Source: an uncultured Chloroflexia bacterium (GTDB lineage Bacteria; Chloroflexota; Limnocylindria; Limnocylindrales; CSP1-4). From it: a stretch of DNA of 64,000 nt. The notes beneath the pieces are model-generated. The model did not search any database. It was given only the letters and a program-made list of their open reading frames with translations, and was not told the origin of the DNA. A program made the position numbers and the translations under genes. The stretch spans positions 69,481-133,480 of the forward strand of contig CAVUSH010000002.1 of the NCBI GenBank assembly GCA_963744095.1, in the 5' to 3' direction. Shown here one piece after another: positions 2,102 to 43,428 of this stretch (position 1 is its first letter; every line of letters begins with the position of its first letter).

Positions 2102-2126
2102 TGGCGCCCCCGGACGGACTCGAACC
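2102..2126 (-). repeat. Displaced copy A of the tRNA-Arg(CCT) 3' end (25 nt)
   Basis: TGGCGCCCCCGGACGGACTCGAACC is identical to 5232-5256. The match diverges inside the T-stem 5' strand. Confidence 0.7.
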
Positions 2127-2198
2127 CCCAACAGCAACGCAGCGTCCTGGACTGGTATCTCGAGGTCGGGTAAGGCTTCCCGTGGCCAACTCGGCGGC

Positions 2199-3188: not shown

Positions 3189-3294
3189 CCGGAGATCGTC
3201 GACCTCGTTTCAAGCTCCCGCGACGGCACCGACTCGACCGCTGTCGGCGGGGCTCGACGTCGCCGAGCTGGAGGCGACCTCGAGAGTTGGTTGC

Positions 3295-3315
3295 TGGCGC
3301 CCCCGGACGGACTCG
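3295..3315 (-). repeat. Displaced copy B of the tRNA-Arg(CCT) 3' end (21 nt)
   Basis: TGGCGCCCCCGGACGGACTCG is identical to 5232-5252. Copy B also shares 10 further flanking nt (AGTTGGTTGC) with copy C. Confidence 0.65.
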
Positions 3316-3656
3316 GAGCCCTCGGACCCGCTGCCATGGTATTTCCCAATACCTGGGCGAGCCAGCCGGCCCCCTGGCATGGCTCGGCGGTGGACTGCTC
3401 CTGATCGTCTCGATGCCCGGACTCCTGCTGCTGGGGGTCTTGGCCATCGCAGGACGCACCTACCGGCGGCGGACGTGGCGGCCCATGCAGCCTCTGGCCG
3501 CGGGGCCGGCCGAGTACGAGCGACAGCTCGCGACCTCTAGAACCAAGCAGCCGACCCCGAAGACGCCGGGGGGACCGGGCACCTCGTGGTCACCTCCGAT
3601 GCTCGTCGGCCAAGGGCGGTTCGTTACATGCTCCACCCTCGAGGTCACCGTCACCC

Positions 3657-4034
3657 GTGGAGGCAGACCTTGACCGCACGGCGCAGGCGAGGGCAGCCCT
3701 GATCTCTCCTGGCTGGGAAGCCGCCGCAACCGACACGGTGGTGGACGCGCAGGGTGAGGTCTTGCATGTGACTCGCGCCCCGGCGGAGCTGGCTGATCGG
3801 GACGCGACATACCTCGGCCAAGAGGCCGTCGGTGGGTTGACCCGAAGCCCCCGTGCGATCGTACGAGCGTCGCTCCGAAGGGCCGGACCAGCAGAGACCG
3901 CAGTCACACTGTCGGGCGCCTGCAGCGCAACGATGTGGGGCGATATGCGGGCAGCCGGGCACCTGACCGACGCGCTGCAGACGCTGATCGACCGCGCCGT
4001 GGCGCTGGTCGGTGTGCAAACGCCGGCACGCTGA
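3657..4034 (+). CDS. Hypothetical protein (weakly supported)
   Basis: 125-aa ORF with moderately high third-position GC. It has no RBS and no recognisable family, and may be a remnant. Confidence 0.25.
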   Translation: MEADLDRTAQARAALISPGWEAAATDTVVDAQGEVLHVTRAPAELADRDATYLGQEAVGGLTRSPRAIVRASLRRAGPAETAVTLSGACSATMWGDMRAAGHLTDALQTLIDRAVALVGVQTPAR

Positions 4035-4155
4035 GAAGACTGCGTTGCAGCGCGCAGTCGCCGGGGTCTGAAAGGTCCTTCGCGAACTGCGGGAAGCACT
4101 TGGCCGCCCGGCCGCCGCGCCCGCCTGACTCCCACGAATCAGGTCCGACGCGAGG

Positions 4156-4740
4156 TCAGCCGATGCTGGCCTCCCCGTCATCCACGGCCCTAACGAGATC
4201 CAAGAGCGCGGATGTCGTCTGCCAACTGCGGATCGTCATCGACCGGTAGAGCGGGGACGACATCACCCGGTTTAGCCGGCTCTTCGTCCGCTGCGCGCTC
4301 AGCCGCTGCGAGTAGATGAGGCCATCGCCCGGCCACACCACGTCCACGCCTTCCTTGGGCGTGAACGCGGGCATCGCCTCGGCGGCGTCGACTCCCACCA
4401 GGAAGATCGCATCGCTGTGGTACAGGTCCGGCTGGTCACCGAACCCCTTCGGTCGCTTGTCGATCGCGGCTTCGAGCTCCGCGCGAGAGAGGACGAGGAC
4501 CCGGATGACGGAGGTGTCGAGCTTGAACCGCCCCGGCATCGCCTCTTCGATCCTCTGGGCGATGGTGTCCGGCTTCTGTTCCGACTGGAGGATCGCGTTG
4601 CCACTCTGGATGTACGTCCGGACGTTCCGAAACCCGAAGTCGGTCAGCAGCGCCCTCAGTTCGCCCATCGGCACCTTGTTCTTGCCGCCGACGTTGATGC
4701 CGCGGAACAGGATCACGTAGGTGGTCAGCGTCTCGCTCAT
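4156..4740 (-). CDS. DUF1697 family protein
   Basis: The N-terminus YVILFRGINVGGKNKVPMGELRALL...VRTYIQSGN is the characteristic DUF1697 signature. Full length is 194 aa. Confidence 0.85.
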   Translation of the reverse strand: MSETLTTYVILFRGINVGGKNKVPMGELRALLTDFGFRNVRTYIQSGNAILQSEQKPDTIAQRIEEAMPGRFKLDTSVIRVLVLSRAELEAAIDKRPKGFGDQPDLYHSDAIFLVGVDAAEAMPAFTPKEGVDVVWPGDGLIYSQRLSAQRTKSRLNRVMSSPLYRSMTIRSWQTTSALLDLVRAVDDGEASIG

Positions 4741-5012
4741 TCCTGCCTCACATCCTCTGCGTCTTCGATGGCATCCTCCGTGCCATCCCGCTGGTCCTCG
4801 ATGGCGAGATGGGAGTTACGACCTCTGCGAACCCGCTACCGTCGGGTGCGCCGGCCACTCCCCCTCGCTGTCTGGCACCCCCCGCGCACCAGCACCGCAT
4901 CATCCTGACGATCGTCGAGCGCGTGCAGGCGACGCCCTTCTTCGGGGACTACGTCGCCGGGGACGCGGCGACCGACGAAGAGGAGGCTCGGCTGTGGGCA
5001 GCAGTTGGTTGC

Positions 5013-5028
5013 TGGCGCCCCCGGACGG
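5013..5028 (-). repeat. Displaced copy C of the tRNA-Arg(CCT) 3' end (16 nt)
   Basis: TGGCGCCCCCGGACGG is identical to 5232-5247. With its flank, a 26-nt stretch is identical to copy B (5003-5028 vs 3285-3310). Confidence 0.6.
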
Positions 5029-5231
5029 GGAACGCGAGGGCGACATCGCCGTTCCATGCGTACCGCACCTCGAGTAGAGTCCCCGGGATCTCCAGGCCCA
5101 CCCGGCCGCAGCTCGCGGAGCTGGTCCGGCTTCTCGTCGAGAGCGTGACGGCAAGCGGTCGTGCCGTCGATCCAGAGTCCATCGAGTGGGCGCCGCCCGC
5201 TCGCCCGTTCTTCGGGGAAGCTGCGTTGCTG

Positions 5232-5307
5232 TGGCGCCCCCGGACGGACTCGAACCGCCGACGCAGGCCTTAGGACGGCCTCGCTCTGTCCACTGAGCTA
5301 CGGGGGC
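5232..5307 (-). tRNA. tRNA-Arg (anticodon CCT), CCA encoded
   Basis: The reverse complement folds as a cloverleaf. Acceptor is GCCCCCG/CGGGGGC, D arm GCTC..GAGC, and anticodon stem AGGCC/GGCCT with loop GTCCTAA. T arm is GGCGG-TTCGAGT-CCGTC, followed by G-CCA. Confidence 0.9.
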
Positions 5308-5396
5308 GCGGACCCCGATCGTACTCCACCCGGCCCCGCGGGCTGCCCGCCGCGGCGGTTCGCCCGGGCGTCCCGGGGTCGTCCGGCCGCTCACCG

Positions 5397-5402
5397 TACA
5401 AT
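5397..5402 (+). promoter_or_regulatory. Candidate -10 box (TACAAT), 8 nt upstream of the ATG at 5411; possible leaderless transcript
   Basis: TACAATcgccggcgATG. There is no SD between the box and the ATG, and no convincing -35. Confidence 0.3.
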
Positions 5403-5410
5403 CGCCGGCG

Positions 5411-5692
5411 ATGGACGCAGCCGCCCCTCCCCTCCCAGATCTCGTGCTCTGGCGCTCGGATCGCTGCCACCTGTGCGAGGAGACGACGGCGCTGGTGGAG
5501 CAGCTACTCGAGCAGCGAGCCGCGGCGGGTCGCGCCGTTCCCCGGCTCGTCGTCCGCCGGATCGCGGAAGACCCGGACGTCGAGCGCGCCCTGTTCGAGC
5601 AGGTCCCCGTCCTCGAGGTCCGCGGGCGCCGCCTCGCCCTGGCCGTCCGACTGGCCCCGATCCGGGTGTTTCTCGACGAGACGTACACCTGA
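5411..5692 (+). CDS. Glutaredoxin-like (thioredoxin-fold, DUF836-like) protein
   Basis: 93 aa with the CxxC motif CHLC near the N-terminus and a C-terminal VPVL motif. Its stop overlaps the ccdA start (ATGA). Confidence 0.7.
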   Translation: MDAAAPPLPDLVLWRSDRCHLCEETTALVEQLLEQRAAAGRAVPRLVVRRIAEDPDVERALFEQVPVLEVRGRRLALAVRLAPIRVFLDETYT

Positions 5693-6504
5693 TGGAGGGT
5701 TCGGACCTCAGCCTCCTGGTCGCCTTCGGAGCCGGCCTCCTCAGCTTCCTCTCGCCGTGCGTGCTGCCCCTGGTGCCCGCCTATATCGGGCAGCTCACGG
5801 TGGTCGCGGTCGTGGGCCGCGCGAACGCCACGCCGTCCCGCTGGCTGGCCGTCCGCCACGCGATCGCCTACGTCCTGGGCTTCGGGGCCGTCTTCACGAT
5901 CCTCGGCATCACCGCCACCTTCGTGGGCGGGCCCCTCGCGGACTATCTTCCGGCCCTGCGGACGTTCGGCGGCGTGCTCCTCATCGTGATGGGCCTCAAT
6001 CTCGCCGGCATCCTGCGGATCCCCGCGCTCGACCGAACCTGGCGGCCCCTCGAGGCGGGCGCGGCGGGTGCGCTGGCGGAGACGACGGGGACGATAGCGT
6101 TCGCCACGCCGGGCGCCGAGAGCGGGCCCGGGCTCGGCGAGCAGCTCGGCGGGCGCCTCGTGGGCGGTCGCGGGGGGATCGGGGCCTCGTTCGGCCTCGG
6201 CGTCGTCTTCGCGATCGGCTGGACGCCGTGCATCGGGATCATCCTGGGCAGCATCCTGACGGTCGCGGCCTCGTCGGGGACGACCCTCCAGGGCGGCCTG
6301 CTCCTCGTCGCCTACACGCTGGGCCTCGGCGTCCCGTTCATCCTGCTGGGCGTCGTCTACGATCGCGCGCCGGCGTTGGTACGCCCGCTGGTGCGGCACG
6401 GGCGCGCCGTCAGCTTCGTCGGCGGCCTCCTGGTCGCGACGATCGGCGTCTTCATGCTGCTGGACTGGCTCACCTGGTTCTCGCGCCTCGCCCCCGGGAT
6501 CTAG
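5692..6504 (+). CDS. ccdA: Cytochrome c biogenesis protein CcdA (DsbD-type thiol-disulfide transporter)
   Basis: Starts MEGSDLSLLVAFGAGLLSFLSPCVLPLVPAY. A second conserved Cys lies in GWTPCIG. Multiple TM helices. Confidence 0.85.
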   Translation: MEGSDLSLLVAFGAGLLSFLSPCVLPLVPAYIGQLTVVAVVGRANATPSRWLAVRHAIAYVLGFGAVFTILGITATFVGGPLADYLPALRTFGGVLLIVMGLNLAGILRIPALDRTWRPLEAGAAGALAETTGTIAFATPGAESGPGLGEQLGGRLVGGRGGIGASFGLGVVFAIGWTPCIGIILGSILTVAASSGTTLQGGLLLVAYTLGLGVPFILLGVVYDRAPALVRPLVRHGRAVSFVGGLLVATIGVFMLLDWLTWFSRLAPGI

Positions 6505-6511
6505 GCAGCGC

Positions 6512-7207
6512 GTGATCGGTCCCGACACCGACCCGCCGGAATCGCGTCGCGGCGTCATCGGCCCATTCACCGGCCGCCAGCTCGCCGCCGCGCTGATCGT
6601 CGTGCTCGCGGCGGCGCTCGTCCTCGTCATCGCGACCCAGCCCCTCGTGACGCCCGGCGCCACGCCCGCCCCGGTGGACCCTCGCGCGACGCAGTACCTC
6701 GTGGGCTCCGCCGGGGAGGGCCTCCGGGTCGGCGACCGTGCCCCGGAGCTGGAGATCGTCGGTCCGAACGGGTCGCCCGCGCCGCTGCTCGACCTCGACG
6801 GAAACCCGGTCCGCCTTGCGGACCTCCGCGGCCGCCCGGTGTGGATCAACTTCTGGGCCAGCTGGTGCCCGCCGTGCCAGGCCGAGACGCCGACGATCCG
6901 CGACACCGCCGCGGCATACGCACCGCAGGGCCTCGAGGTCGTCGGGATCAGCGTCCAGGAGGCGACCGAGGACGACGTCCGGGCCTATGCCGAGAAGTAC
7001 GACCTCGGGTACACGGTCGCGGCCGACCTCGCGGGCGACGTCTTCCGCCTCTACCGCGTGTTCGGGCTCCCGACGCAGTACTTCCTCGACCAGGAGGGGA
7101 TCATCCGCTCCATCGTCCAGGGCCCGGTGACGCCCGAGACCGCGGCATCCAACCTCGCCCTGCTCGACCTCGAGCCGCCGCCGAGCTCGCCGACGGACGC
7201 TCCGTAA
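6512..7207 (+). CDS. TlpA/ResA-like membrane-anchored thiol-disulfide oxidoreductase
   Basis: N-terminal TM anchor, thioredoxin fold with WCPPC, and the FGLPTQYFLD motif. Confidence 0.85.
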   Translation: MIGPDTDPPESRRGVIGPFTGRQLAAALIVVLAAALVLVIATQPLVTPGATPAPVDPRATQYLVGSAGEGLRVGDRAPELEIVGPNGSPAPLLDLDGNPVRLADLRGRPVWINFWASWCPPCQAETPTIRDTAAAYAPQGLEVVGISVQEATEDDVRAYAEKYDLGYTVAADLAGDVFRLYRVFGLPTQYFLDQEGIIRSIVQGPVTPETAASNLALLDLEPPPSSPTDAP

Positions 7208-7235
7208 CTTCCTGCTTCCGTAAGCGAGCGGCGCC

Positions 7236-8096
7236 CTAGACCACCGGCTCCCAAGCGAACCGGTCGCGCTCGGCGACCAGGCGGCCCACCGGGTGGCGCA
7301 GCTCGTGGGAGAGGACGACCGTCCAGCGCTCCTCCGCGGCCCGGGCGAAGAGCGTCGCCTTGCGGGCCACCGAGTCGAGTGGGAAGTCGTCGAACGACGG
7401 AATCCAGCGTGGGTTGGCCGACCAGGGGCGCATCGCGATGTCCCCGAAGAAGGCGAGCGTCGCGCCCGGCGCCCGCACGACGATCGCCTGGTGGCCCGCC
7501 GTGTGGCCGCCGGTGGGCGCCACCCGGACGCCCGGGACCAGCTCCACCTCGCCCTCGGCCGCGCCCTCGTCGCCCCACGACCGGACGAGGCGTAGCTCGG
7601 GCTGGTCGTAGGAGGCCGCGATGCGCGGGTTGTCCGACAGGGCGATCTCCCACTCGGCGCGCTGGGCGACGATTCGGGCGCGGGCGAAGGCACGCGTCCC
7701 GTCCGTGCGCAGGAGGCCGCCGGCGTGGTCGTAGTGGAGGTGGCTCAGGGCCACGACGTCGATCGATGCCGGGTCGAAGCCGGCCCGCTCGAGCGTCGGG
7801 ACGATCGGCTCGCCGCCGAGGCCCCGCCAGGCGCGGCTGCGCTCGTCGAGCCGCTCGCCGATCCCCGTCTCGACCAGGACGCGGCCGGCCGGGGTCTCGA
7901 CCAGGAGGCAGTTGAGGGCCTGCAGGAGGCGGTGCTGCTCGTCGAGCTCGTCGACGACGAGCCGGTCCCACAGCACGCGCGGCGCAGGCCCGAAGATGGC
8001 GCCGGCGTCGGAGCGGAAGGTCCCCGCCTGAACGAGTGCGACGCGGGTCCCTCCGCCGAGATCCGCCGACCAGTGGACCGCGTCGTTGAGCCCCAT
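7236..8096 (-). CDS. MBL-fold metallo-hydrolase
   Basis: HxHxDH motif present as HLHYDHAGG, with downstream GHTAGH. The start at MGLND (8096) was chosen because the longer ORF runs through dcd. Confidence 0.8.
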   Translation of the reverse strand: MGLNDAVHWSADLGGGTRVALVQAGTFRSDAGAIFGPAPRVLWDRLVVDELDEQHRLLQALNCLLVETPAGRVLVETGIGERLDERSRAWRGLGGEPIVPTLERAGFDPASIDVVALSHLHYDHAGGLLRTDGTRAFARARIVAQRAEWEIALSDNPRIAASYDQPELRLVRSWGDEGAAEGEVELVPGVRVAPTGGHTAGHQAIVVRAPGATLAFFGDIAMRPWSANPRWIPSFDDFPLDSVARKATLFARAAEERWTVVLSHELRHPVGRLVAERDRFAWEPVV

Positions 8097-8101
8097 CGCG
8101 A

Positions 8102-8695
8102 TCAGCCCTTCCCCGGGAGCTTCCGACGGGCGTCGAAGTCGCGGTGGAACGCCGAGGCCGTCGGCTGGCTCTGCCCCTGGTACTTCGAGCCCAGCTCCGA
8201 GGTGCCGTAGGGGCGCTCCACGGGGCTCGACATCTGGAAGAAGCTGATCTGCCCGATCCGCATCCCGGCGTAGAGGGCGATCGGGAGGTTCGCCACGTTG
8301 CTCAGCTCGAGGGTCAGCGTGCCCTTCCAGCCAGGGTCCACGTAGCCGGCCGTGGAGTGGATGAGGAGCCCCAGGCGGCCCAAACTCGACTTGCCCTCGA
8401 GCCTGGCGACGAGGTCCGTCGGGAGCTCCACCCACTCGATCGTCTGGCCGAGGACGAACTCGCCCGGGTGGAGGATGAACGGCTCGTCGTCGCGGACGCC
8501 CAGCAGCTCGGTCAGGTCAGGCTGCGCCTCGCGGGGGTCGATGAAGGCGTAGCGATTGTTGCGGAAGACCCGGAAGCTGCGGTCCAGGTGGAGATCGACC
8601 GAGGAAGGCTGCAGGTCGGCGGGATCGTAGGGTTCGATGCGGATCCGGCCGGCCTCGAGCGCGGCGCGGATGTCGCAGTCGGCGAGGACGCTCAC
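8102..8695 (-). CDS. dcd: dCTP deaminase
   Basis: [38 protein letters not shown] and the full-length architecture. The GTG start overlaps the nrdR stop (GTGA). Confidence 0.9.
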
Positions 8696-9174
8696 GACCG
8701 TTGGTCCTCCGTCTCGGGCTCGCGCTCCGCGTACAGGGAATCAACTTCGCGCTTGAGGGTTTCGAGGTCCTCGAATGACTGGTAGACGCTGGCGAAGCGG
8801 ATGTAGGCGATCTGGTCGAGCGCTCGCAGCTGCTCCATGGCGAGCTCGCCGATCCGCGAGGATTCCACCTCGCCGGCGCCGGCCGCCCGCAGAGTCGCCT
8901 CGATCTCGTCGGCGGCGCGCTCGGCCGCCCCGTCGGGGACCGGGCGGCGCGTCAGCGCCTTGCGAATGCCCGCGGCGAGCTTGTCGCGATCGAACTCCTG
9001 GCGGACGCCGTCGCGCTTCACGACGACCAGGCGGGCAGCTTCCACCCGCTCGTACGTGGTGAACCGGGCACCGCAGGCGACGCACTCGCGGCGGCGCCGG
9101 ATCGTCCCGGCGTCCTCGAGGTCCCGCGAGTCGACCACCCGCGTGTCGCGCTCTTCGCACGTGGGACAGCGCAT
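8692..9174 (-). CDS. nrdR: Transcriptional repressor NrdR
   Basis: Starts [17 protein letters not shown]...[12 protein letters not shown] (zinc ribbon), followed by an ATP-cone domain ([16 protein letters not shown]). Confidence 0.9.
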
Positions 9175-9195
9175 CCGGTACTCCCGCCCGCCGAC

Positions 9196-9213
9196 ACCAC
9201 AAGATCTTGTGGT
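9196..9213. promoter_or_regulatory. Candidate NrdR box 1 (perfect palindrome ACCACAAGATCTTGTGGT)
   Basis: Perfect 18-bp palindrome 22 nt upstream of the nrdR start. The inner 16 nt match the NrdR-box consensus acaCwAtATaTwGtgt at about 12/16. Confidence 0.6.
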
Positions 9214-9226
9214 CTGGGCGGACGAT

Positions 9227-9244
9227 ACCACGACATACAGTGGT
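9227..9244. promoter_or_regulatory. Candidate NrdR box 2 (ACCACGACATACAGTGGT)
   Basis: Imperfect palindrome with the same ACCAC/GTGGT arms. Centre-to-centre distance to box 1 is 31 bp, the usual tandem NrdR-box spacing. Confidence 0.55.
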
Positions 9245-9277
9245 TCGAGGCCCTTTGCAGCTCGAAGTCGGGGCGGC

Positions 9278-9835
9278 TCAGCCGCTCCCCGGCCGGTCCT
9301 CGTCCCAGCCGCCTGCCTCGGTGCGGCCGGAGCGCAGAGCCTCGGCATGGGACGCCAGCGCCTCGCGCGCGTGGAGCAGGTTCAGGTAGCCCCGCTTGAT
9401 CGACGTCTCGCCCTCGAGCCCGCGCGGCCCGCCGGGCTCGGCGCCGAGGAGGATGCAGCCGTGCCGAACCGTTGCGACGGCCCGGCCGGCCCGGTCGATC
9501 TCCTCGACGATCCGCGCGCCCGTGGTCGCGAGCGCGGCAGGCGGGACCAGCGCGTTCGCCTCCACGCCGAGCGCGCCGAGGTCCTCGACGAGCTGGGGGA
9601 GCACCTCGTGGAGCGTGGAAGGGGCTTCACTCCGGCGGCGGACGCGGTCGATCCGCTCGGCCCCGGTGGTGATGGCGGCCACGGCTCGGTCGGCCAGGGC
9701 GGCGCTGTCACGGCGAAACGTGTCCGCCTCGCGGGTGTCGGCGACGACGCGGGCCGCCCGGCGCAGCACGTACGCGAAGGCGATCGCGAGGAGGACGAAG
9801 AGGAGCAGCGACGCGACGGTCAGGACCTGCGTCAC
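9278..9835 (-). CDS. Hypothetical membrane-anchored protein (185 aa)
   Basis: GTG start is preceded by GAGG immediately after the etfA stop. It has an N-terminal TM helix (LTVASLLLFVLLAIAFAYVL) and no family recognised. Confidence 0.55.
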   Translation of the reverse strand: MTQVLTVASLLLFVLLAIAFAYVLRRAARVVADTREADTFRRDSAALADRAVAAITTGAERIDRVRRRSEAPSTLHEVLPQLVEDLGALGVEANALVPPAALATTGARIVEEIDRAGRAVATVRHGCILLGAEPGGPRGLEGETSIKRGYLNLLHAREALASHAEALRSGRTEAGGWDEDRPGSG

Positions 9836-9848
9836 GGTCGTCGACCTC

Positions 9849-10841
9849 TCAGGTGGCGCGGGCGTGGATGGCCGCGACGATCGCGGGGACGATCTCGAAC
9901 AGGTCCCCCACCACGTACAGGTCGGCGTGCTCGGCCAGGGGGGCGTCGGGGTCGCGGTTGATGGCGACGATCGTCCCGGCGTCCTGCATGCCGACTCGGT
10001 GCTGAATGGCGCCGGAGACGCCGATCCCGACGTAGACCGCCGGGCGGATTGTCTTGCCGGTCTGGCCGACCTGCACGGCGAAGGGCAGCCAGCCCGCATC
10101 AACGGCGGCCCTGGTGGCGGCGACCGCGCCCCCGAGAGCGGCCGCCAGCTCCTCGAGGAGCGCGACGCCGTCGGGTCCGCCGAGCCCCCGGCCCCCGGCC
10201 ACGACGATGGGAGCCTCCTCGATGCTCGCCGCCCGCGTGGCCGTATCGGCGCGGCCGATGACCCGGATGCCGCTCGGGGTCGCCGCCGAGGCGGCGACGA
10301 CGTCGATCGTTCCCGGCGCATCTGCCGGCGCCGCCGTCGCAGCGCCGGGGCGGAGCGTGATGATCCCGCACCCATGCGCGAACGCGGACGTCGTCAGGGC
10401 ACGTCCGCCGAGGACGCTCATCTCCACGCGCGGCCCGGCCGGCACGCCGTCCTCTCCCCCACTCCACGACAGCTTGGTGGCGTTGCCGAGGACGCCCCAC
10501 CCCAGCCGCGCGGCCACGATGCCGGCTGCCTCGCGACCGTCCGGCGTGGCCCCCATGAGCAGCACACAGGGCCCTTCGGCGGCGGCCGCGGCCGCGATCG
10601 CGGAGGCGGCCGCGACATTCGACCCGGCCGCCTCCGCGGGGAGGCGGACACTGATCACCCGCGCCGCATAGGCGGCGAGCGCGGCCGCGGCGGCGTCGGG
10701 GTCGGGCGCGGCGAGCATGGCCGCGGAGGAGGTGCCGGCGGCCGCGGCGAGCGTGCGTGCGGCGGTTGCGGCCTCCAGCGAGAGGCGCGTCGGAAGTCCG
10801 TCGAGCCCAAGCTCGGCGATCGCCCAGATCGGGCCGCTCAT
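9849..10841 (-). CDS. etfA: Electron transfer flavoprotein alpha subunit
   Basis: C-terminal FAD-binding signature PAVYVGIGVSGAIQHRVGMQDAGTIVAINRDPDAP. The start overlaps the etfB stop. Confidence 0.85.
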   Translation of the reverse strand: MSGPIWAIAELGLDGLPTRLSLEAATAARTLAAAAGTSSAAMLAAPDPDAAAAALAAYAARVISVRLPAEAAGSNVAAASAIAAAAAAEGPCVLLMGATPDGREAAGIVAARLGWGVLGNATKLSWSGGEDGVPAGPRVEMSVLGGRALTTSAFAHGCGIITLRPGAATAAPADAPGTIDVVAASAATPSGIRVIGRADTATRAASIEEAPIVVAGGRGLGGPDGVALLEELAAALGGAVAATRAAVDAGWLPFAVQVGQTGKTIRPAVYVGIGVSGAIQHRVGMQDAGTIVAINRDPDAPLAEHADLYVVGDLFEIVPAIVAAIHARAT

Positions 10842-11623
10842 CGAACCGCCCGCCGCTCCACGAGGAAGTCGACCACCTCGCGGGCGGCCACGCCGGGCTC
10901 CTCCCGGACGACACGCGCCGACGCCCGCGCGACGGGTGGCCGCTGGGCCACGACGACCGTGGTCGCCGACCCGCCGCCGACCGCCGTGTCGCCCAGGCCG
11001 AGGTCCGCCAGGGCTCGCACCGCGATCTCCTTGGCCCGCGCCCCCATGATCCCCTTGAGCGTCGGGTACCGCGGTTCGCCCAGCAGCTGCGTGCCGACGA
11101 CGACCGCGGGAAGCGGTGCCTCGACCGTCTCCTCGCCGGTCCCGACGATCCGCCTGACGTGGATCAGGCCCTGGCCCGCCGCGTCGATCGCCGCGGCGCC
11201 CGATACGAGCGGCAGACCGAGCAGCGTGGCGATGCCCGCCCCCACGACCCCGCCGCCGCCGTCCGCGCTGTCGGCGCCCGCGAGGACGAGGTCGAACTCG
11301 ATCGTCCGCAGGGCCGCGGCCAGGACCTGCATCGTCGAGAGTGTGCACGAGCCCGCGAGGAGGTCGTCGCTGACGAGGACCGCGCGGGCGGCGCCCATCG
11401 CCAGGCCCTTGCGCAGCGCGTCGCGCGCCTCCGCCGGCGCCATCGCGACCAGGGTCACCTCGCCGCCGTTGGCGTCGACCAGGCGGAGGGCCGCCTCCAG
11501 CGTGTACTCGTCGTTGCCGTTGAGCACCGGGGGCGCGGCGGAGCGATCCAGCCGGCCGTCGGGGCGCAGCTGCTCCTGTCCGGTGGCGTCGGGGACGGGC
11601 TTGACGAGCACGACGATGCGCAC
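10838..11623 (-). CDS. etfB: Electron transfer flavoprotein beta subunit
   Basis: VRIVVLVKPVPD...LNGNDEYTLEAALRL. A GGAGG lies 10 nt upstream of the chosen GTG. The longer ORF start at 11656 is possible. Confidence 0.85.
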   Translation of the reverse strand: MRIVVLVKPVPDATGQEQLRPDGRLDRSAAPPVLNGNDEYTLEAALRLVDANGGEVTLVAMAPAEARDALRKGLAMGAARAVLVSDDLLAGSCTLSTMQVLAAALRTIEFDLVLAGADSADGGGGVVGAGIATLLGLPLVSGAAAIDAAGQGLIHVRRIVGTGEETVEAPLPAVVVGTQLLGEPRYPTLKGIMGARAKEIAVRALADLGLGDTAVGGGSATTVVVAQRPPVARASARVVREEPGVAAREVVDFLVERRAVR

Positions 11624-26974: not shown

Positions 26975-27013
26975 CGAATGAGGCCCTCGGGTCGCTCCCG
27001 AGGGCCTCATTCG
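26975..27013. terminator. Strong GC-rich hairpin (17-bp stem, 5-nt loop); likely bidirectional terminator for the cupin gene and originally for tRNA-Pro
   Basis: CGAATGAGGCCCTCGGG-tcgct-CCCGAGGGCCTCATTCG. The right arm lies inside the 79-bp direct repeat. Confidence 0.6.
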
Positions 27014-27072: not shown

Positions 27073-27120
27073 CCACGACGGGTCGATTCAGACCGTCCTC
27101 ACGCATCGGCTAGCAGGGGT

Positions 27121-27192
27121 GCGCCCCGGTCGCCCGGTGCGCGTCCCATCCCGCAAACGGAGCGGAGCGCCCGGTGCGGAGGCGGGGGCCGT
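27121..27192 (-). repeat. R repeat copy R1
   Basis: Minus strand: GGCCCCCGCCUCCGCACCGGGCGCUCCGCUCCGUUUGCGGGAUGGGACGCGCACCGGGCGACCGGGGCGC. It directly follows the stop of the lipoprotein gene. Confidence 0.7.
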
Positions 27193-27203
27193 GGTGAACG
27201 GCC

Positions 27204-27821
27204 CTATTGGTTCGCCCTGATCAGTGCCGTGACCATGGCCTTCGCGTCTTTCGCCGTCGTCCCGAAGACCGCGACGACACCCTCGCCCCGTTTGTAGATG
27301 GCAAAGTACTGTCCCGACGTGCTGACCAGCCTAACCGGCTCTGCGAGGATCGTCGCCTTCGTGACGGTGCCGTCCGAGCCCCCCATGCTCGCGGCCATGG
27401 AGTCGAGAAAGCCCGGCTGATCGAGGATCGCGCCAGCCCCCGGGAACTCCAGGACGAGGGCATATCCCACGGGCGTCGTGCCATTCATGACCTGGCGCAT
27501 ACCGATCCTCAGCACCTCGGCCAGGCTGCCGAGGCTCGTCGCGAACCCGGTTTCCAGCATGGCCGCCGTCGCCTCGTCCAGTGGCGCGAGGATGTATGGG
27601 GCCCCGATCTTGAGATTGGCGCTCGGGTCAACCTTCGGTGTCGGCGTCGGTGTCGGTGTCGGCGTCGGGGTGGGTGTCGGCGTCGGCGTCGGTGTCGGGG
27701 TGGGTGTCAGCGTCGGGGCTGGCGAAGGGGTCACCGCTGGACTTGTCGCCCCACACGCGGCGAGCAGCGCAATCACCATCAGAACGACGAAAGACGCCCT
27801 GGCCTTGTCGCGCCGGTTCAT
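27204..27821 (-). CDS. Lipoprotein with (Thr-Pro)n linker
   Basis: ATG is preceded by GGAGGAG. Signal peptide with lipobox LLAAC, then [25 protein letters not shown] and a globular domain. Confidence 0.75.
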   Translation of the reverse strand: [205 protein letters not shown]

Positions 27822-27960
27822 GGCACGCTCCTCCACCGTGCCCGCAGGTCGGACTCGGCAGTGGCTCGGCGCGGTCCCGGCGGGCAAGTCGTGAACCACG
27901 CGTCAATCCCGCTCCCGGGCACGATCTCCGACTGCGGCGCAGTCCGTCGAGAGCCAACCA

Positions 27961-28031
27961 GCCCCCGGTCGCCCGGTGCGCGTCCCATCCTCCGAACAGA
28001 GCGGAGCGTCCAGTGCGGAGGCGGGGGCCGT
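27961..28031 (-). repeat. R repeat copy R2
   Basis: Minus strand: CGGCCCCCGCCUCCGCACUGGACGCUCCGCUCUGUUCGGAGGAUGGGACGCGCACCGGGCGACCGGGGGCUG. It sits between the 82-aa ORF stop and the lipoprotein gene. Confidence 0.75.
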
Positions 28032-28040
28032 CAGGGTTAC

Positions 28041-28289
28041 CTAGGTGCGCCTCTCGCCGCCTCCGCTCGGCGCGTCCAGATCGCCGTCGATGATCCGGAG
28101 CGCTTCGTCCCGCGTGATGACGTCAAGCGGCGGATCCCCGCCGAGCCCGGTGAGCTTCCCGTACATGCCGGGGAAGTCGACCCACTTGTCGATCGAGCGA
28201 TCGTAGATCGCGATCGAAAGCGCGTCGGGGGTCCGGACGATGCGGGCGACCGAGCTGCGGAACCGGTAGAACGTCGTCGAGTCCGGCAT
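28041..28289 (-). CDS. Hypothetical small protein (82 aa)
   Basis: ATG is preceded by GGAGG at 9 nt. No family recognised. Confidence 0.55.
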   Translation of the reverse strand: MPDSTTFYRFRSSVARIVRTPDALSIAIYDRSIDKWVDFPGMYGKLTGLGGDPPLDVITRDEALRIIDGDLDAPSGGGERRT

Positions 28290-28300
28290 CTCGATGTTCC

Positions 28301-28351
28301 TCCCGGTCGCGCCGCCGGCGCGGGAACGCGACGGAGCGCCGGGGTGCGAAG
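28301..28351 (-). repeat. R repeat copy R3 (diverged)
   Basis: Minus strand: CUUCGCACCCCGGCGCUCCGUCGCGUUCCCGCGCCGGCGGCGCGACCGGGAGG. Its 3' end supplies the GGAGG RBS of the 82-aa ORF. Confidence 0.55.
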
Positions 28352-28388
28352 ACGAGTAGATCGAGTAGATCGATAGGTGATGCCTACT

Positions 28389-29399
28389 TCAGCAGCCGCA
28401 GGCCATCTGTTTGTACGCGAACTTGACCGCGTCAGTCTTCGTGGAGTCGGCGATCGACCTGATCGTGATGAGGCGGGTCATGTTGCCACCCCCCGACGCG
28501 ATCCTGGCGCGGATGGCGTAGGTCGCGCCGGACGCCAATGAGGCGGTGCGGAAGCTGCCTGCGACGATCGACAAAGTGATGTTCGTTGTGCCGTGGAAGT
28601 AGGCCACCTTCCAGCCGCCGGTGGCGGCGCCGGTTGCCTTGATCTTGAAGCGGTCGGCCTTGGAGCCGTCATTCTGGATCGTGATGTCGAAGGTGTAGAA
28701 CGACCCTTCGACCTCGGCGAAGTTCTGGACCAAGGCCTTCTGGCCGGCGCCCGTCGTGTTGTAGACGTCGTCGCCGACGAACGTCTCGTGGTATCTCGTG
28801 GTCTTGCCGGGATAGCCGGAGGTTCCCAGCCGGATGCGGCCGTCGGGCTTGTGACCCGCCACACTCGCCGTGATCACGCAGCCTCCCGTCGAGATCTGCC
28901 ACCCTGCGCTACCAAGGGTCAGGCCCACCGTGATCTTGTATGGCTCCCCGAATACCTCGGTCACGACTACGGTGGCCGCAGTCCCGGAGATGGCGGCAGC
29001 GCCTGCCGTGACCGAATCCGGGATGGCCTGGGCGCACAAGACCGGGTCGGCCCCGCCGAACATCTGGCCGTCGTTGTAGTGCTCCGCCCAGTCGACAAAG
29101 GCCGGCGTGAGGTCCGGCCGGCCGCGGAGGTTGACGGCGCCGCCCTGAAGCTCGGCGATGTACCACGTGTAGAAGGACTGGACGACGGCCTGGGGGCCCG
29201 GCTCGGCCCCGTTCACGACGGGGATCTGGGACGAGGCGAGGATCGCGGCGGCCAGCAGGCCGACGATCAGGGAACGCCCGCGGGACGCTGTGACACGCAC
29301 TCGGGTGACGGCTCCCGACGCGGGGCGCGGCGGCGGCGCATGGACGTCCGTGGCATCGCCGCTCGCTGAGGCGCGTCGGATACGGCTCGTCACTTCCAA
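28389..29399 (-). CDS. Secreted hypothetical protein (336 aa)
   Basis: N-terminal basic region plus TM/signal segment (LIVGLLAAAILASS), beta-rich C-terminal domain, ending in ACGC. The start may be the GTG at 29393, after GAGAGGGGGG. Confidence 0.7.
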   Translation of the reverse strand: MEVTSRIRRASASGDATDVHAPPPRPASGAVTRVRVTASRGRSLIVGLLAAAILASSQIPVVNGAEPGPQAVVQSFYTWYIAELQGGAVNLRGRPDLTPAFVDWAEHYNDGQMFGGADPVLCAQAIPDSVTAGAAAISGTAATVVVTEVFGEPYKITVGLTLGSAGWQISTGGCVITASVAGHKPDGRIRLGTSGYPGKTTRYHETFVGDDVYNTTGAGQKALVQNFAEVEGSFYTFDITIQNDGSKADRFKIKATGAATGGWKVAYFHGTTNITLSIVAGSFRTASLASGATYAIRARIASGGGNMTRLITIRSIADSTKTDAVKFAYKQMACGC

Positions 29400-29585
29400 G
29401 CCCCCCTCTCTCTGGCATGCTCATGCCCGAACGGGGGGCCGGTCTCGCCATTGGCCAGCACGACGGTCGTGGCGACCGCATAGGACGCCGTGCCGATGGA
29501 GCCCGTGCTCCGCGCCTCGCTCCCGATCGGCGGAGTGTGCGCGCCTCGCCGCGGAATAGATAGCCGTCGATTTCACCGGCTCCGG

Positions 29586-29634
29586 GGCCCCTAGAGGCGC
29601 CCGGCGCGCGTCCATCCCACCGCTCGCGTGCGGC
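29586..29634 (-). repeat. R repeat copy R4 (internally deleted variant)
   Basis: Plus strand GGCGCCCGGCGCGCGTCCATCCC...GTGCGG aligns to both ends of the R element. The middle part is missing. Confidence 0.45.
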
Positions 29635-29695
29635 ATCGTCCACGGGCCCAGCGTACCGCCGGCGCGCCCCGGGGCGCGGAGCCTGGGTGGAATAG

Positions 29696-29760
29696 CCCGG
29701 CCCCCGGACGGAACGCCCCGTCCCCATCCTCTTGCGAGAGCGCGCAGGGCGGCCCGGAAC
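29696..29760 (-). repeat. R repeat copy R5 (diverged)
   Basis: Plus strand CCCGGCCCCCGGACGGAACGCCCCGTCCCCATCCTCTTGCGAGAGCGCGCAGGGCGGCCCGG aligns along R6. Confidence 0.5.
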
Positions 29761-29894
29761 CGAGGGCCGCGGTGAGTCAGAGGCGGCGGCAAGTCGTGCC
29801 AGCGGTCGGGCGCAGCCCGGAACATGCCCTGGCGCACCACGAAGAGGACGGCGGATCCGCTCCCACTGCGCCGGCGCCTCGCCATGTTGGTGGG

Positions 29895-30209
29895 TCAGGG
29901 GAGAGACGTCGGGACCAGGGTTTCCGTACCCCAGTTCGCCAACACGATCGCGACCTCGACCACGATGACGGCGAACAGCACCAGGGCGACGATGATGAGG
30001 ATGGTTCCGAGCCTGCCTGCGTTCGCGCCGCCTCCCAAATGCAATAGACAGCCCACGCCGAGCGCGAACGCTGCCAGCACAGGGAGGCTGGACCAGCTGG
30101 ACGTCTCCCCGTGGAGGACGGGCGACAGTGTGATGACCAGAACGACCAGCGCCGCGATGGCACCGCCCACCGTGATCAGCCGTGGCCAGGTCTCCCGCAC
30201 GATTCTCAT
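29895..30209 (-). CDS. Small membrane protein (104 aa, 3 TM helices)
   Basis: Starts MRIVRETWPRLITVGGAIAALVVLVITL. The longer ORF start at 30263 lies inside repeat R6 and is less likely. RBS is weak. Confidence 0.55.
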   Translation of the reverse strand: MRIVRETWPRLITVGGAIAALVVLVITLSPVLHGETSSWSSLPVLAAFALGVGCLLHLGGGANAGRLGTILIIVALVLFAVIVVEVAIVLANWGTETLVPTSLP

Positions 30210-30234
30210 GGTGCCACGGCTACAGCCCTTCGTC

Positions 30235-30300
30235 GGCCCCCGGACGCCCGGCGCGCGTCCCATCCTCCGAGGAGAGCGGAGCGCCCGGTGCGGAGTCCGC
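30235..30300 (-). repeat. R repeat copy R6
   Basis: Minus strand: GCGGACUCCGCACCGGGCGCUCCGCUCUCCUCGGAGGAUGGGACGCGCGCCGGGCGUCCGGGGGCC. It ends 23 nt upstream of the membrane-protein ATG. Confidence 0.7.
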
Positions 30301-30472
30301 TTTTGCGCTACTTGATGCAGTCGGAGACGCCCTCCGAACCCTTCGCGACAACGACCGCATCGGGACCGAGCACGCCCCAGCTGTTGTGTTCGTTCGCAAC
30401 GCTACTCACCGCTAGGGATGCTTTCGGGGTGAGCCACCAAGAGCCCCGGAGTTCGTGGATGCGTCGCTCCAA

Positions 30473-30787
30473 TCATGCGGTTGCGCGGAGATCGGGCGAG
30501 GGATCGCTCACGAAGGCGCGACTATGCGACGCTGGCGCGCTCGAGGTCGGAGACGTCGCTCCCCTCGGGCGGGACTCGAACGCCTCGAGGCCGCTCTCGT
30601 CGATCAGGGCCCGCTCCGCGTCGCTGATGGGCACGAGCATCAGCACGTGGCCGACGATGCGCGAGCACTCGACGTGGAAGAGGGCCCCGTCGCCCAACTG
30701 GGGCGCGGTGAGCCCCATCGCAGTCTTGCCGAAGCGCCGGGCGATCTCACCCAGAGACTCGCGACCGCTGAACGTGTTGCCGATCAC
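30473..30787 (-). CDS. Hypothetical protein (104 aa), possibly a remnant
   Basis: GTG start with GGAGGAG 12 nt upstream. The low-complexity Ser/Pro C-terminus suggests decay. Confidence 0.4.
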   Translation of the reverse strand: MIGNTFSGRESLGEIARRFGKTAMGLTAPQLGDGALFHVECSRIVGHVLMLVPISDAERALIDESGLEAFESRPRGATSPTSSAPASHSRAFVSDPSPDLRATA

Positions 30788-30837
30788 GAGCGCGGCCGGC
30801 TCCTCCGCGAGCTCGCCGGCGAGCGAGGCCTCGGGTT

Positions 30838-30916
30838 GCTCCCGAGGGCCTCATTCGTGCTCAGCGAGTGGTCGGGGTGCCGCGATTCGAACGCGGGACC
30901 TCCTGAACCCCATTCA
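30838..30916 (-). repeat. Right 79-bp direct repeat (3' 48 nt of the intact tRNA-Pro plus 31-nt trailer)
   Basis: Identical to 26994-27072. The hairpin left arm here is imperfect (one C missing), so this copy looks element-supplied. Confidence 0.85.
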
Positions 30917-30945
30917 GGTGCGCTACCAAGCTGCGCCACACCCCG
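30869..30945 (-). tRNA. tRNA-Pro (anticodon GGG), CCA encoded
   Basis: Reverse complement: acceptor CGGGGTG/CACCCCG, D arm GCGC-AGCTTGGTA-GCGC. Anticodon stem CCTGA/TCAGG with loop ATGGGGT. T arm CCGCG-TTCGAAT-CGCGG, then A-CCA. Confidence 0.9.
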
Positions 30946-31930: not shown

Positions 31931-32371
31931 ATGGTCATGACAGGGAAGGTGATGCCGTCGGCCCACGCGGTCGACTATCGCATCGAGCGCCTGGCGATCC
32001 TCGAGCACCCGGAGGCCCACCTCGCGGAGGTCCTTGATCGGCTGAACGAGATGGGCAAGCAGGGCTGGCGCGTCGTCAGCGTCGACTTGACCCACCACCC
32101 GTCGTACTCGCCGGCGGCCCAGCCGACGATCCCGCTGCCCGTCCTGCTGGAGAAGCCTATCGGGGCGATCCGGCCCGTGGAGTACCGCATCGAGCGCATG
32201 CCGTTCCAGGAGCACCCGGAGGCGCACATCTCCGAGCTGGTCGAGCGGCTCACCGAGCTGGGGAAGCAGGGCTGGCGTGTCGCGAGCGTCGACCTGACCC
32301 ACCACCCGTCGTACTCGCCGGCGGCCCAGCCGAGCACGCCGTTGCCGGTGCTGCTGGAGCGCGAGACCTGA
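31931..32371 (+). CDS. Tandem-duplicated DUF4177 domain protein
   Basis: Two ~65-aa repeats (YRIERLAILEHPEAHLAEVLDRLNEMGKQGWRVVSVDLTHHPSYSPAAQP and YRIERMPFQEHPEAHISELVERLTELGKQGWRVASVDLTHHPSYSPAAQP). An alternative ATG at 31952 has a better RBS. Confidence 0.7.
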   Translation: MVMTGKVMPSAHAVDYRIERLAILEHPEAHLAEVLDRLNEMGKQGWRVVSVDLTHHPSYSPAAQPTIPLPVLLEKPIGAIRPVEYRIERMPFQEHPEAHISELVERLTELGKQGWRVASVDLTHHPSYSPAAQPSTPLPVLLERET

Positions 32372-42393: not shown

Positions 42394-43428
42394 CTACGCC
42401 CGGGGATGTGACCGGGCATACACGTCACGGATCCGTTCGCCCGTCAGGTGCGTGTAGATCTGCGTCGTGGAGATACTGGCATGGCCGAGCAACTCCTGTA
42501 CGACGCGCAGGTCCGCTCCGCCCTCCAGGAGGTGCGTCGCATACGAGTGGCGCAGGGTGTGCGGCGAGATCCGGCCGCCCAGGCCGGCGGCGGCCGCCGC
42601 CCGCTTCACCACGATCCAGGCGTGGTTGCGGCCGAGGCGCCGCCCGCGATCCGACAGGAAGACCGGGCCCCCGCGCGCCCCGCGAGAGCGATCCGCCGCG
42701 GCGAGCACGGGACGCGAGGTGGCGACGTACCGCCCGAGCCAGTCGATCGCCACGTCACCGACCGGGACCACGCGCTCGCGGTCCCCCTTGCCGACCACCC
42801 GTACGCTCCCACCCTCGAGGTCGAGGTCGTCGCCATCGAGGCGGAGCGCCTCGGTGATCCGGAGGCCCGCCGCGTAGAGCAGCTCGAGGAGGGCGCGGTC
42901 ACGGAGCGCCGCCAACGGCGTCGGCGAACCCCCGCGCCGCCCCGGCCCCTCGCCCACGCCCGCCGCGAGGTCGGGGTCCACGGCGCGGAGGAGCCGGTCC
43001 ACCTCGTCGACCGTCAGGGGATCCGGCAGGATCCGCGGCTCGCGCGGGAGGTCGAGATGGCCGGCGACGTCGACCGCGATGAGATCCTCCGCCAGGGCGA
43101 AGCGAAAGAAGGACCGCAGCGCCGCCGTTCGTCGTCGCAGGCTCGTGGCCCGCAGCACCCGTCCCGACGGGCCGGCCGCTCCCGCGAGGCGGGCCAGGTA
43201 GTCGATCGCCGCCTCCGGGGAGAGCCCCCACCGCGGCGCCTCTGGCGAGCGGCCGAAGTCGGCGAGGTCCGTGCCGTAGCTCGCGATCGTGGCGGGCGAG
43301 AGGCCACGCTCGATCCGAAGGTGGACGAGGAACGACTCCGTCGCGGCGGCGAGGTCCGCGGGAACCGGGACGTCGCCCCGTCCCGCGCCGCGCCGACGGC
43401 GGACCCGCGGGCCGGCCGCCCCCGTCAT
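42394..43428 (-). CDS. xerD: Site-specific tyrosine recombinase XerD
   Basis: The N-terminal SAM-like domain starts at FLVHLRIERGLSPATI. The catalytic domain carries HTLRHSYATHLLEGGADLRVVQELLGHASISTTQIYTH. The ATG overlaps the recN stop, and the gene context is conserved housekeeping. Confidence 0.85.
   Translation of the reverse strand: MTGAAGPRVRRRRGAGRGDVPVPADLAAATESFLVHLRIERGLSPATIASYGTDLADFGRSPEAPRWGLSPEAAIDYLARLAGAAGPSGRVLRATSLRRRTAALRSFFRFALAEDLIAVDVAGHLDLPREPRILPDPLTVDEVDRLLRAVDPDLAAGVGEGPGRRGGSPTPLAALRDRALLELLYAAGLRITEALRLDGDDLDLEGGSVRVVGKGDRERVVPVGDVAIDWLGRYVATSRPVLAAADRSRGARGGPVFLSDRGRRLGRNHAWIVVKRAAAAAGLGGRISPHTLRHSYATHLLEGGADLRVVQELLGHASISTTQIYTHLTGERIRDVYARSHPRA

Follow-up and report, generated by a model that had tools for sequence, protein, structure and literature searches.

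An oriented, conserved hairpin-forming element at the joints of gene-sized modules in variable islands of Limnocylindrales-type Chloroflexota

The 64,000-nucleotide stretch of DNA analysed here (the window; contig CAVUSH010000002.1 of an uncultured Chloroflexia bacterium) carries a small island next to a tRNA-Pro gene, in which several gene junctions are occupied by related copies of an oriented, inverted-repeat, hairpin-forming element of about 80 nt, hereafter H. We find H to be conserved and hitherto undescribed, and to delimit gene-sized modules in the variable islands of Limnocylindrales-type Chloroflexota. It recurs across the lineage at the joints of unrelated small genes, often in tRNA-linked plastic regions, it is often joined, at a constant distance, to a promoter-like stretch that leads into an orphan riboswitch variant, and homology between loci tends to break at it. 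The pattern described in an initial annotation of the window, viz., single, small, unrelated and co-oriented genes with one conserved imperfect hairpin between them, adjoining a tRNA attachment (att) site, is real and general. As regards function, we tentatively read H as a hairpin at transcript boundaries that would also serve as portable homology for gene shuffling, an interpretation that the sequence patterns favour and to which we would give a little under an even chance.

H in the tRNA-Pro island and across the lineage

The island is bracketed by 88-nt direct repeats, which are 99% identical and enclose 3.76 kb, and one of which overlaps the tRNA-Pro(ggg) gene identified by both ARAGORN and Rfam (30869-30945, minus strand; Table 1), in agreement with the tRNA-Pro island and att repeats annotated earlier. 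A repeat search of the window revealed a 69-nt family with members at 27124, 27963 and 30238 that share 77-91% identity, and the 22-mer GAGCGGAGCGCCCGGTGCGGAG, when up to three mismatches are allowed, occurs three times in the 64 kb against 0.02 expected occurrences. A covariance model built from these copies (R1, R2 and R6) scores the three at 91-97 bits and, when run over the whole 64-kb window with its filters off, finds nothing comparable beyond the island copies, which bears out the earlier impression that the repeat is absent elsewhere in the window. R1 is the final copy of the array and lies 7 nt past the stop codon of the 205-aa lipoprotein open reading frame (ORF) and 45 nt short of the left att repeat. 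R2 begins 5 nt past the stop of the 82-aa ORF, with a promoter-like linker and then an aptamer on its downstream side, while the first bases of R6 include the TAG stop of a possible 54-aa ORF and a membrane ORF begins ~22 nt downstream of it.

Six copies, one at every gene junction, had been proposed for the island, which overstates the case: besides the three solid copies there are two that are decayed or possible and one that is unsupported. R5 is a decayed copy, the ends of which match the family ends and the interior of which has diverged. R4 aligns over ~25 nt of the 3' arm only, with 80-84% identity to R2 and R6 and with the second aptamer of the island downstream, and is possibly a truncated copy resembling the 3'-arm-only copies of other genomes. 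R3 has no support as a copy of H: this local hairpin (-31 kcal/mol, z -1.3) does overlap the ribosome-binding site of the 82-aa ORF, as had been pointed out, yet neither the covariance model nor nhmmer detects it.

More widely, H was collected with two exact patterns. The first, GCGCGTCCCATCC-N9-AGCGGAGCG (22 bases), yielded 32 loci in 23 assemblies (the genome set), and the second, taken from the 3' arm, yielded at least 120 metagenome contigs (the metagenome set); each locus (L numbers below) is represented by a stretch of 8-13 kb or less. The suggestion that the repeat might be an island-specific element is thus wrong. The assemblies with H are nearly all labelled Chloroflexota, 'Chloroflexia' or Candidatus Limnocylindrales, and H is also present on one IMG/VR contig (L033). 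With the covariance model, the genome loci yield 61 copies of H and the first 100 metagenome loci yield 157. Among the metagenome matches listed, all copies of a locus lie on one strand in 59 of the 60 multi-copy loci, the remaining one being mixed, and tRNA genes are found in 10 of 120 loci; the corresponding figure for the genome set is 10 of 32. The start-to-start spacing of H in the metagenome arrays has a median of 937 nt and ranges from 201 to 5412 nt. An Rfam search had been suggested along with the initial description of the island, and Rfam 15 has no family at H, whether in the window (E values up to 10), in 8 loci (E values up to 0.05) or in 20 loci at gathering score. The possibility that H is a tRNA-like or another known RNA was accordingly dropped, as neither ARAGORN nor Rfam finds anything at it. 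A blastn search of H against cultured-phage and plasmid collections gave no match, and we found no literature on H and none that links Limnocylindria with riboswitches. H arrays also occur in two metagenome-assembled genomes not labelled Chloroflexota, viz., L004 (Isosphaeraceae) and L024 (Cellulomonas); the latter shares 99.9% identity with L007, a Chloroflexota contig of the same study, and is therefore likely to have been mis-binned.

The gene-strand consensus of H is cACGGCCCCCGGCUCCGCACCGGGCGCUCCGCUC-(4-bp stem with YNCG loop)-GGAUGGGACGCGCACCGGGCG(A/U)CCGGGGGCCGUU, and it folds into a closing helix of 9-11 bp, a middle helix with bulges and a 4-bp apical stem with a tetraloop. The middle helix contains the 10-mer GCACCGGGCG in both arms, giving two direct copies ~37 nt apart, and the bulged bases are A, A and C, in addition to a variable, covarying tip. 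The predicted hairpins of the window have free energies of -36 to -42 kcal/mol. For the apical hairpin of the initial annotation, a YNCG tetraloop on a stem of 4 bp is the better description. The closing stem of R6 had been taken for a compensatory change, but no covariation is involved: the 3' strand still has the family consensus (CCGGGGGCC), and replacement of the 5' strand alone has broken the family closing helix in three of five pairs. The consensus 3' end of H is GGCCGTT followed by C/T-G-C-C, and the tail past the stem runs G (81%), T (64%), T (60%) and then mixed bases.

Over two alignments, which were drawn from copies pre-selected by an exact word in one arm, 86-87% of the cells are paired in this fold, compared with 54% or less when the partners are slid. 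Covariation is mostly limited to the apical stem (UA 23 / CG 17 and CG 25 / GC 18 in the first alignment; UA 66 / CG 13 and CG 72 / GC 19 in the second), with the outer closing helix covarying somewhat. Two variants dominate the apical stem and hence few independent events lie behind these counts. The loops are mainly UUCG and CUCG, with one GUGA, and these tetraloop types hint at RNA. Thus, formation of a hairpin by H is supported, be it in RNA or in DNA.

Flanks of H and breaks in homology

The surroundings of H follow a recurrent order. The 5' flank is unique in every copy, with a stop codon often located 0-60 nt upstream of H. Based on rough gene calls from the GC content of third codon positions, the neighbouring gene is co-oriented with H in 131 cases versus 33 on the upstream side and in 109 versus 38 on the downstream side, and only five copies are antisense to both neighbours. 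H is also found at the ends of arrays or between convergent genes (R1, the second H of L012, L027:765 and L010:6087), a placement consistent with an element that acts on the 3' end of the gene before it. The ORFs that come after H or after an aptamer are unrelated to each other, forming 45 clusters from 50 sequences, and ~60% of them have N-termini that resemble signal peptides, membrane segments or lipoboxes.

About one-third of the H copies end ~10 nt before a promoter-like stretch of the form TCGCCA, 17 nt, TACGGT, and in most of these promoter-type cases the next feature is an aptamer of the c-di-GMP-II-GAG/GCG variant, which is followed by a gene for an envelope or secreted protein. The first box of this linker is TCGCCA, or TTGACA in some copies, the second is TACGGT, CACGAT or CAGCGT, and the linker ends 8-10 nt before the aptamer. 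In related loci, matches to RF03169 with scores of 40-77 bits are positioned on the same strand 19-42 nt downstream of H. Using lineage-specific profiles, H is located upstream of 60 of the 93 metagenome aptamers among the matches listed, with a commonest distance of ~40 nt. Only the 3' arm of H precedes the aptamers in L006, L008 and L027, and R4 may be alike. In the window, the linker after R2 consists of a -35-like TCGACG (27950-27945), an 18-nt spacer and a -10-like GATCGT (27926-27921). The aptamer adjoining it is located in the 5' leader of the 205-aa lipoprotein gene, scores 52 bits (E = 1e-14) with the lineage profile and aligns throughout with the copies of related loci, whereas the second window aptamer, upstream of the 336-aa secreted ORF, is more diverged (23.7 bits, E = 1e-5).

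The linker is complementary to part of the aptamer over 9 nt (UCUCGCCAG / CUGGCGAGA), and we considered a pairing between the two as well as a shared 5' leader, the latter being an alternative raised in the initial annotation. We reject both; the two segments show no compensating changes. Rather, the linker drifts toward the -35 consensus TTGACA without a matching change in the aptamer, from which we infer that it is probably a promoter and not a pairing partner. The 186 distinct downstream flanks include 56 of this promoter type, 93 that are unique and a few small clusters; the idea that all H copies share a promoter at a set distance downstream was discarded, as this arrangement holds for the main downstream type only. 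We also discarded H as a source of a start codon or an N-terminal peptide (GGAGG-AUG, 'MGRAPG...'), the ORFs from the internal AUG having a median length of 31.5 codons versus 41-42 codons in the other frames. Among the smaller downstream types, a second conserved one has the form GCGTGTCCGGCAGCG-W-TCGTGGC-W-GTCTGCGCCGACGTCC (L030 1914-1960, L028 7889-7930, L008 4762-4800 and L007 600-640), and a third, CCCTCGG-N-GAGAAT / GATAAT, looks like another promoter situated nearer the aptamer.

Homology between loci tends to break at H. We defined breakpoints as the internal ends of segments shared among all loci (at least 250 nt long and at least 88% identical; n = 98), and 37 of them lie in H or within 15 nt of it, against 5.1 ± 2.1 for random positions (~7-fold). 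Aptamers account for 9 breakpoints against 2.6 expected. Within H, the breakpoints occur over its entire length and not at one position, which, together with the enrichment at aptamers, fits homologous exchange better than a fixed site-specific crossover. A 678-nt unit that is duplicated on one 1.56-Mb contig with 99.85% identity (L025:788-1465 = L027:1440-764) and encodes a secreted repeat protein (NEFRAGERASLTQ repeats) has its right edge exactly after ...GGGGGCCATT and its left edge inside the upstream H, which in L027 has collapsed between its two GCACCGGGCG repeats. As for insertions and deletions, the one distinguishing L043 from L056 begins at the 5' edge of H, and that between L006 and L060 joins two aptamers.

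Possible roles of H and its relation to known systems

In the tentative reading given at the outset, H would be transcribed, and the hairpin would damp read-through from the upstream gene and/or protect or define the 3' end of the upstream mRNA. Together with H, the adjacent promoter would make each gene its own expression unit, as in phage morons and in the promoter-early stem-loop (PeSL) cassettes of T4-type phages, and since the same 80 nt recur at many junctions, they could act as portable homology through which genes are swapped, duplicated and deleted among small tRNA-integrating islands.

The closest described system appears to be the PeSL cassette, in which a stem-loop and a sigma-70-like promoter come after the stop codon of one gene and before the next gene, the function of which is unknown (Arbiol et al. 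2010, PMC2839356; Comeau et al. 2014, PMC4122927). PeSLs concentrate in hyperplastic regions, where they mediate insertions, deletions and replacements (PMC2839356, PMC4122927), and their terminator and promoter activities have been shown experimentally (PMC2839356). By analogy, H is likewise a repeated composite motif at the gene junctions of hypervariable regions, about one-third of its copies show the same order of stop codon, stem-loop, sigma-70-like promoter and next small gene of unknown function, and the insertions, deletions and replacements between relatives fall at the motif, as the breakpoint counts above indicate. As for differences, H is ~80 nt long, in contrast to a short stem-loop, and its sequence is far more conserved; it resides in chromosomal and integrative islands of Chloroflexota and not in lytic phage genomes; the promoter-like stretch at H is often followed by a riboswitch variant, and H also occurs with no recognisable promoter; and the activities of PeSLs were assayed, whereas terminator and promoter roles of H are deduced from sequence alone.

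Two further phage systems share some of these features. Morons, reportedly described by Hendrix and colleagues in 2000, are self-contained promoter-gene-terminator units in prophages. H arrays similarly consist of small self-contained transcription units in an integrative or phage-like element, and in L033 the array comes right after the large terminase gene; unlike H, one conserved hairpin that lacks a U-tract and comes back in every unit, the terminators of morons are ordinary intrinsic ones that share no common sequence. The early genes of phage T7 are separated by RNase III processing hairpins, which after cleavage protect the upstream mRNA. Like H, these hairpins are long and imperfect, contain internal loops and recur from junction to junction along a series of co-oriented small genes, but the T7 sites are not followed by promoters, and for H the comparison is drawn from sequence.

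Several observations weigh against H as a transcript boundary with portable homology. Although the long imperfect hairpin annotated in the window is indeed predicted, its copies do not exceed dinucleotide shuffles in stability (z -1.2 to +0.7, in sequence of 70-80% GC). H is a GC-rich stem-loop, as expected of an intrinsic terminator, but in the 8 nt that follow the stem just 2 of 118 copies have at least five T, so that H is not a canonical intrinsic terminator, and a terminator scan detected no H copy. The middle and inner helices are nearly invariant in sequence, which a plain terminator would not need. Departures from pairing that leave only the gene strand paired (G-U) are as common as those that leave only the opposite strand paired (A-C), with counts of 62 versus 55 and 32 versus 37, and RNA-level folding of H is therefore not demonstrated; strand asymmetry, which we considered as a possible proof of RNA folding, is absent. 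On the downstream side, a strict sigma-70 scan reported no promoter, including none after R2, about half of the distinct downstream flanks are unique with no recognisable promoter, and in three cases (R6 of the window, L012 and L033:8964) the downstream ORF starts 21-31 nt past H, so that transcription must pass through H or begin at its edge. As for shuffling, the breakpoints are not independent events, and BLAST tends to extend alignments into conserved patches. Taken together, a length and conservation beyond those of PeSLs, the missing U-tract, the invariant middle helices and the equality of G-U and A-C departures are left unexplained by this reading and leave room for an operator, a site-specific recombination site and a REP-like repeat. 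The alternatives of a REP-like element and of a terminator or RNA-stabilising hairpin, both named in the initial annotation, each fit in part and only in part.

The same annotation likened the island to integron cassette arrays, and H does resemble attC sites in that there is one gene per unit in a single orientation, with a bulged imperfect hairpin of variable tip directly after the ORF. Extrahelical bases and a variable tip are present in H, but this feature is not specific to attC, and the integron reading fails. Neither core site, R'' (RYYYAAC) or R' (GTTRRRY), is present near the ends of any of 65 copies, as already noted for GTTRRRY in the island, and IntI and an attI/Pc platform are absent as well; the integrases by the arrays are XerC/D-like and the breakpoints are not at one position. 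Integron cassettes are mostly promoterless, whereas about one-third of the H copies appear to be followed by a promoter-like stretch belonging to the unit, often with a riboswitch, which sets these units apart from promoterless cassettes. A related idea is that H is a site-specific recombination site, attC-like but unrelated to integrons, at which a XerC/D-like integrase crosses over near the conserved 3' end (...GGCCGTT), and we regard this as very unlikely. Arrays with one unrelated gene per interval, the bulged hairpin with its variable tip, a 3' end that is sharply conserved with sequence diverging immediately downstream, the exact stop of the L025/L027 homology at GGCCATT, and the related tyrosine integrases that adjoin arrays in L012, L016, L033 and L144 would all agree with it, and the equal G-U and A-C departures fit folding at the DNA level. 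Its integrases, however, are not of the IntI type and are already accounted for by the tRNA att repeats; an integrase is present in only 2 of 120 metagenome loci among the matches listed and none is near the window island; attC core sites are missing and the units carry promoter-like stretches of their own. Moreover, the left edge of the L025/L027 unit is inside the upstream H and not at a 3' end, and the spread of breakpoints along H and their enrichment at aptamers both fit homologous exchange. It is just as improbable that H serves a cassette system in which the XerC/D-like integrases of these small tRNA-integrating islands excise and capture single-gene units at one set position of the folded hairpin, the units already having a promoter and a riboswitch.

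A self-spreading repeat with no host function, of the repetitive extragenic palindrome (REP/REPIN) or miniature inverted-repeat transposable element (MITE) type, is unlikely, although an ~80-nt unit of two imperfect inverted arms, flanks that are arbitrary on both sides in about half of the copies, the many truncated or collapsed copies, one of them collapsed between its two GCACCGGGCG repeats, and the want of an Rfam family would suit it. Target-site duplications are not enriched, with 13 flank matches at k = 6 against 15.8 ± 3.0 in swapped-flank controls, on account of which we rejected a MITE. The copies within a genome differ by 10-25% and do not cluster round one master, the arrays are of one orientation and co-oriented with genes, and the spacing to the promoter-like stretch is fixed. 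REPs stabilise upstream mRNA. REP/BIME, REPIN and ERIC repeats are, like H, imperfect palindromes in transcribed intergenic space after stop codons, but they are dispersed or alternating whereas H is clustered, uniformly oriented and has diverging copies; H lacks their conserved GTAG, which occurs in the first 45 nt of 11 of 65 copies at no fixed position, and in the stretches of 8-13 kb or less around the loci no transposase, including a RAYT transposase, adjoins any copy. Quite unlikely, too, is a DNA-level operator, similar to the stoperators of mycobacteriophages, for a lineage- or island-encoded regulator, which, bound at about -40 to -120, would control the adjacent promoter or block elongation from upstream. 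The almost invariant inner arms, the two direct GCACCGGGCG copies ~37 nt apart, the position of the end of H ~10 nt before the -35-like box, the retention of 3'-arm-only copies upstream of promoters, the equal G-U and A-C departures and the single orientation relative to transcription are what such an operator might show. Yet a duplex binding site would need neither a covarying apical stem nor YNCG or GNRA loops, many copies are at array ends or have no promoter downstream, and no candidate binding protein co-occurs in the same stretches.

Limnocylindrales-type Chloroflexota, an uncultured group without genetic tools, abound in soils and sediments, and H offers a handle on the acquisition and shuffling of envelope- and secreted-protein genes in their genomes. 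With H, the idea that conserved regulatory joints act as recombination points, known from the PeSLs of lytic phages, is extended to bacterial integrative elements. The orphan c-di-GMP-II-GAG/GCG variants are also provided with a setting, viz., dozens of copies in mobile modules with lipoprotein and membrane-protein genes and one promoter type each, and this context should make their ligand easier to look for. Module boundaries and plastic regions could be marked with a covariance model of H when metagenome-assembled genomes are annotated.

Integrative islands, cargo genes and minor features

Direct repeats derived from tRNA genes flank the arrays in the window, L012 and L022. The element in L012 (3919-6239) is a minimal integrative element of 2.28 kb between 43-nt repeats of the 5' half of tRNA-Arg, with the order XerC/D-like tyrosine integrase, lipoprotein gene, H, small membrane ORF, H and att repeat. 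Its integrase scores 49.7 bits against the 265-bit cut-off of the integron-integrase model TIGR02249 and is fitted better by XerC/D models. A second repeat of 27 nt (GCTCAGATGCACC...) is located just inside both ends of this element. L022 has a 1.97-kb element with two H copies between 63-nt tRNA-Val repeats. L033 (IMG/VR contig IMGVR_UViG_3300036761_004159, region 353-11292) could be a prophage remnant or a satellite-like element: a tRNA-Val is followed by an integrase, a replication-initiator-like ORF, a small terminase and a large terminase (311 bits), directly after which five H copies separate lipoprotein and membrane ORFs, and no portal or capsid genes were found after the terminases. 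The tyrosine integrases next to the arrays in L012, L016, L033 and L144 are 48-68% identical to each other.

No integrase is present in or beside the window island, and the sole tyrosine-recombinase match of the window is distant (42454-43350, minus strand); it is 26% identical to the integrase of L012 and is probably a housekeeping XerC/D. The tRNA-proximal SUFU-like ORF abuts the right att repeat, has lost ~75 N-terminal residues and, traced upstream, stays in open frame as far as a stop codon within the repeat. Given the missing integrase and this truncation at the att repeat, the island is presumably an integrase-less, 5'-truncated remnant of a tRNA-integrating element, which might still be movable by an integrase supplied from elsewhere. 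Elements of the CIME type are integrase-less and flanked by att sites. The window island is similar in keeping near-identical 88-nt att repeats and no integrase where related islands encode one, a comparison that concerns the whole island and not H.

L029 represents the same chromosomal locus in another species, with a flank that is 79.5% identical over 4.3 kb and the same tRNA-Pro(ggg). Downstream of it come H, an aptamer and H, and the genes between them share nothing with those of the window. An exact-protein look-up of the flanking Crp-like gene, for an empty site in a sister strain, gave no record. The features of the window island are listed in Table 1. The 336-aa ORF has an internal signal- or membrane-like segment and its start codon is uncertain.

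Table 1. Features of the tRNA-Pro island (window positions; nhmmer values are for the family profile)
Feature	Position	Strand	Evidence or remarks
Left direct repeat	26985-27072		Copies the 3' 48 nt of tRNA-Pro and 40 nt past the tRNA
R1, solid H copy	27118-27196	-	Covariance model 92.0 bits; nhmmer E = 5e-17
205-aa lipoprotein	27204-27821	-	Lipobox (LLAAC), Pro-Thr repeat linker; no Pfam match
Aptamer resembling the c-di-GMP-II-GCG variant	27838-27922	-	RF03170 44.2 bits versus gathering score 47.9, E = 1e-5
Putative promoter-like linker after R2	27921-27950	-	Aligns with the TCGCCA-17-TACGGT geometry of other loci
R2, solid H copy	27957-28035	-	Covariance model 96.8 bits; nhmmer E = 4e-19
82-aa ORF	28041-28289	-	GC content at third codon positions (GC3) 0.91; no Pfam match
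R3, unsupported as family member	28301-28351	-	Missed by covariance model and nhmmer
ORF of up to 336 aa	28389-29399	-	GC3 0.88; no Pfam match
Diverged aptamer resembling the c-di-GMP-II-GAG variant	29428-29512	-	RF03169 36.6 bits versus gathering score 40, E = 2e-4
R4, possible H 3'-arm remnant (GGGATGGACGCGCGCCGGGCG)	29583-29638	-	nhmmer E = 0.44
R5, decayed H copy	29696-29774	-	Covariance model 22.4 bits, E ~0.01; sequence-only nhmmer E = 2.4
104-aa membrane ORF	29895-30209	-	Weak Pfam matches only
R6, solid H copy	30232-30310	-	Covariance model 90.8 bits
5'-truncated SUFU-like ORF	30473-30787	-	Pfam SUFU profile positions 75-157 of 172, E = 0.004
Right direct repeat	30829-30916 (feature 30829-30945)	-	Overlaps the intact tRNA-Pro(ggg), 30869-30945

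A few minor features of the island and its borders were also observed. A perfect 17-bp hairpin at 26975-27013 is located between a cupin gene and the tRNA fragment, with its right arm within the att repeat; at the right-hand counterpart of this site (~30819-30857) the left arm is only degenerate. The 205-aa lipoprotein gene contains a 12-nt tandem repeat (GTCGGTGTCGGC type, 27623-27748), which on the gene strand encodes the Pro-Thr linker of the protein. On the other side of tRNA-Pro, a conserved gene has an internal tandem duplication of ~207 nt both in the window (31959-32359) and in L029 (4513-4926).

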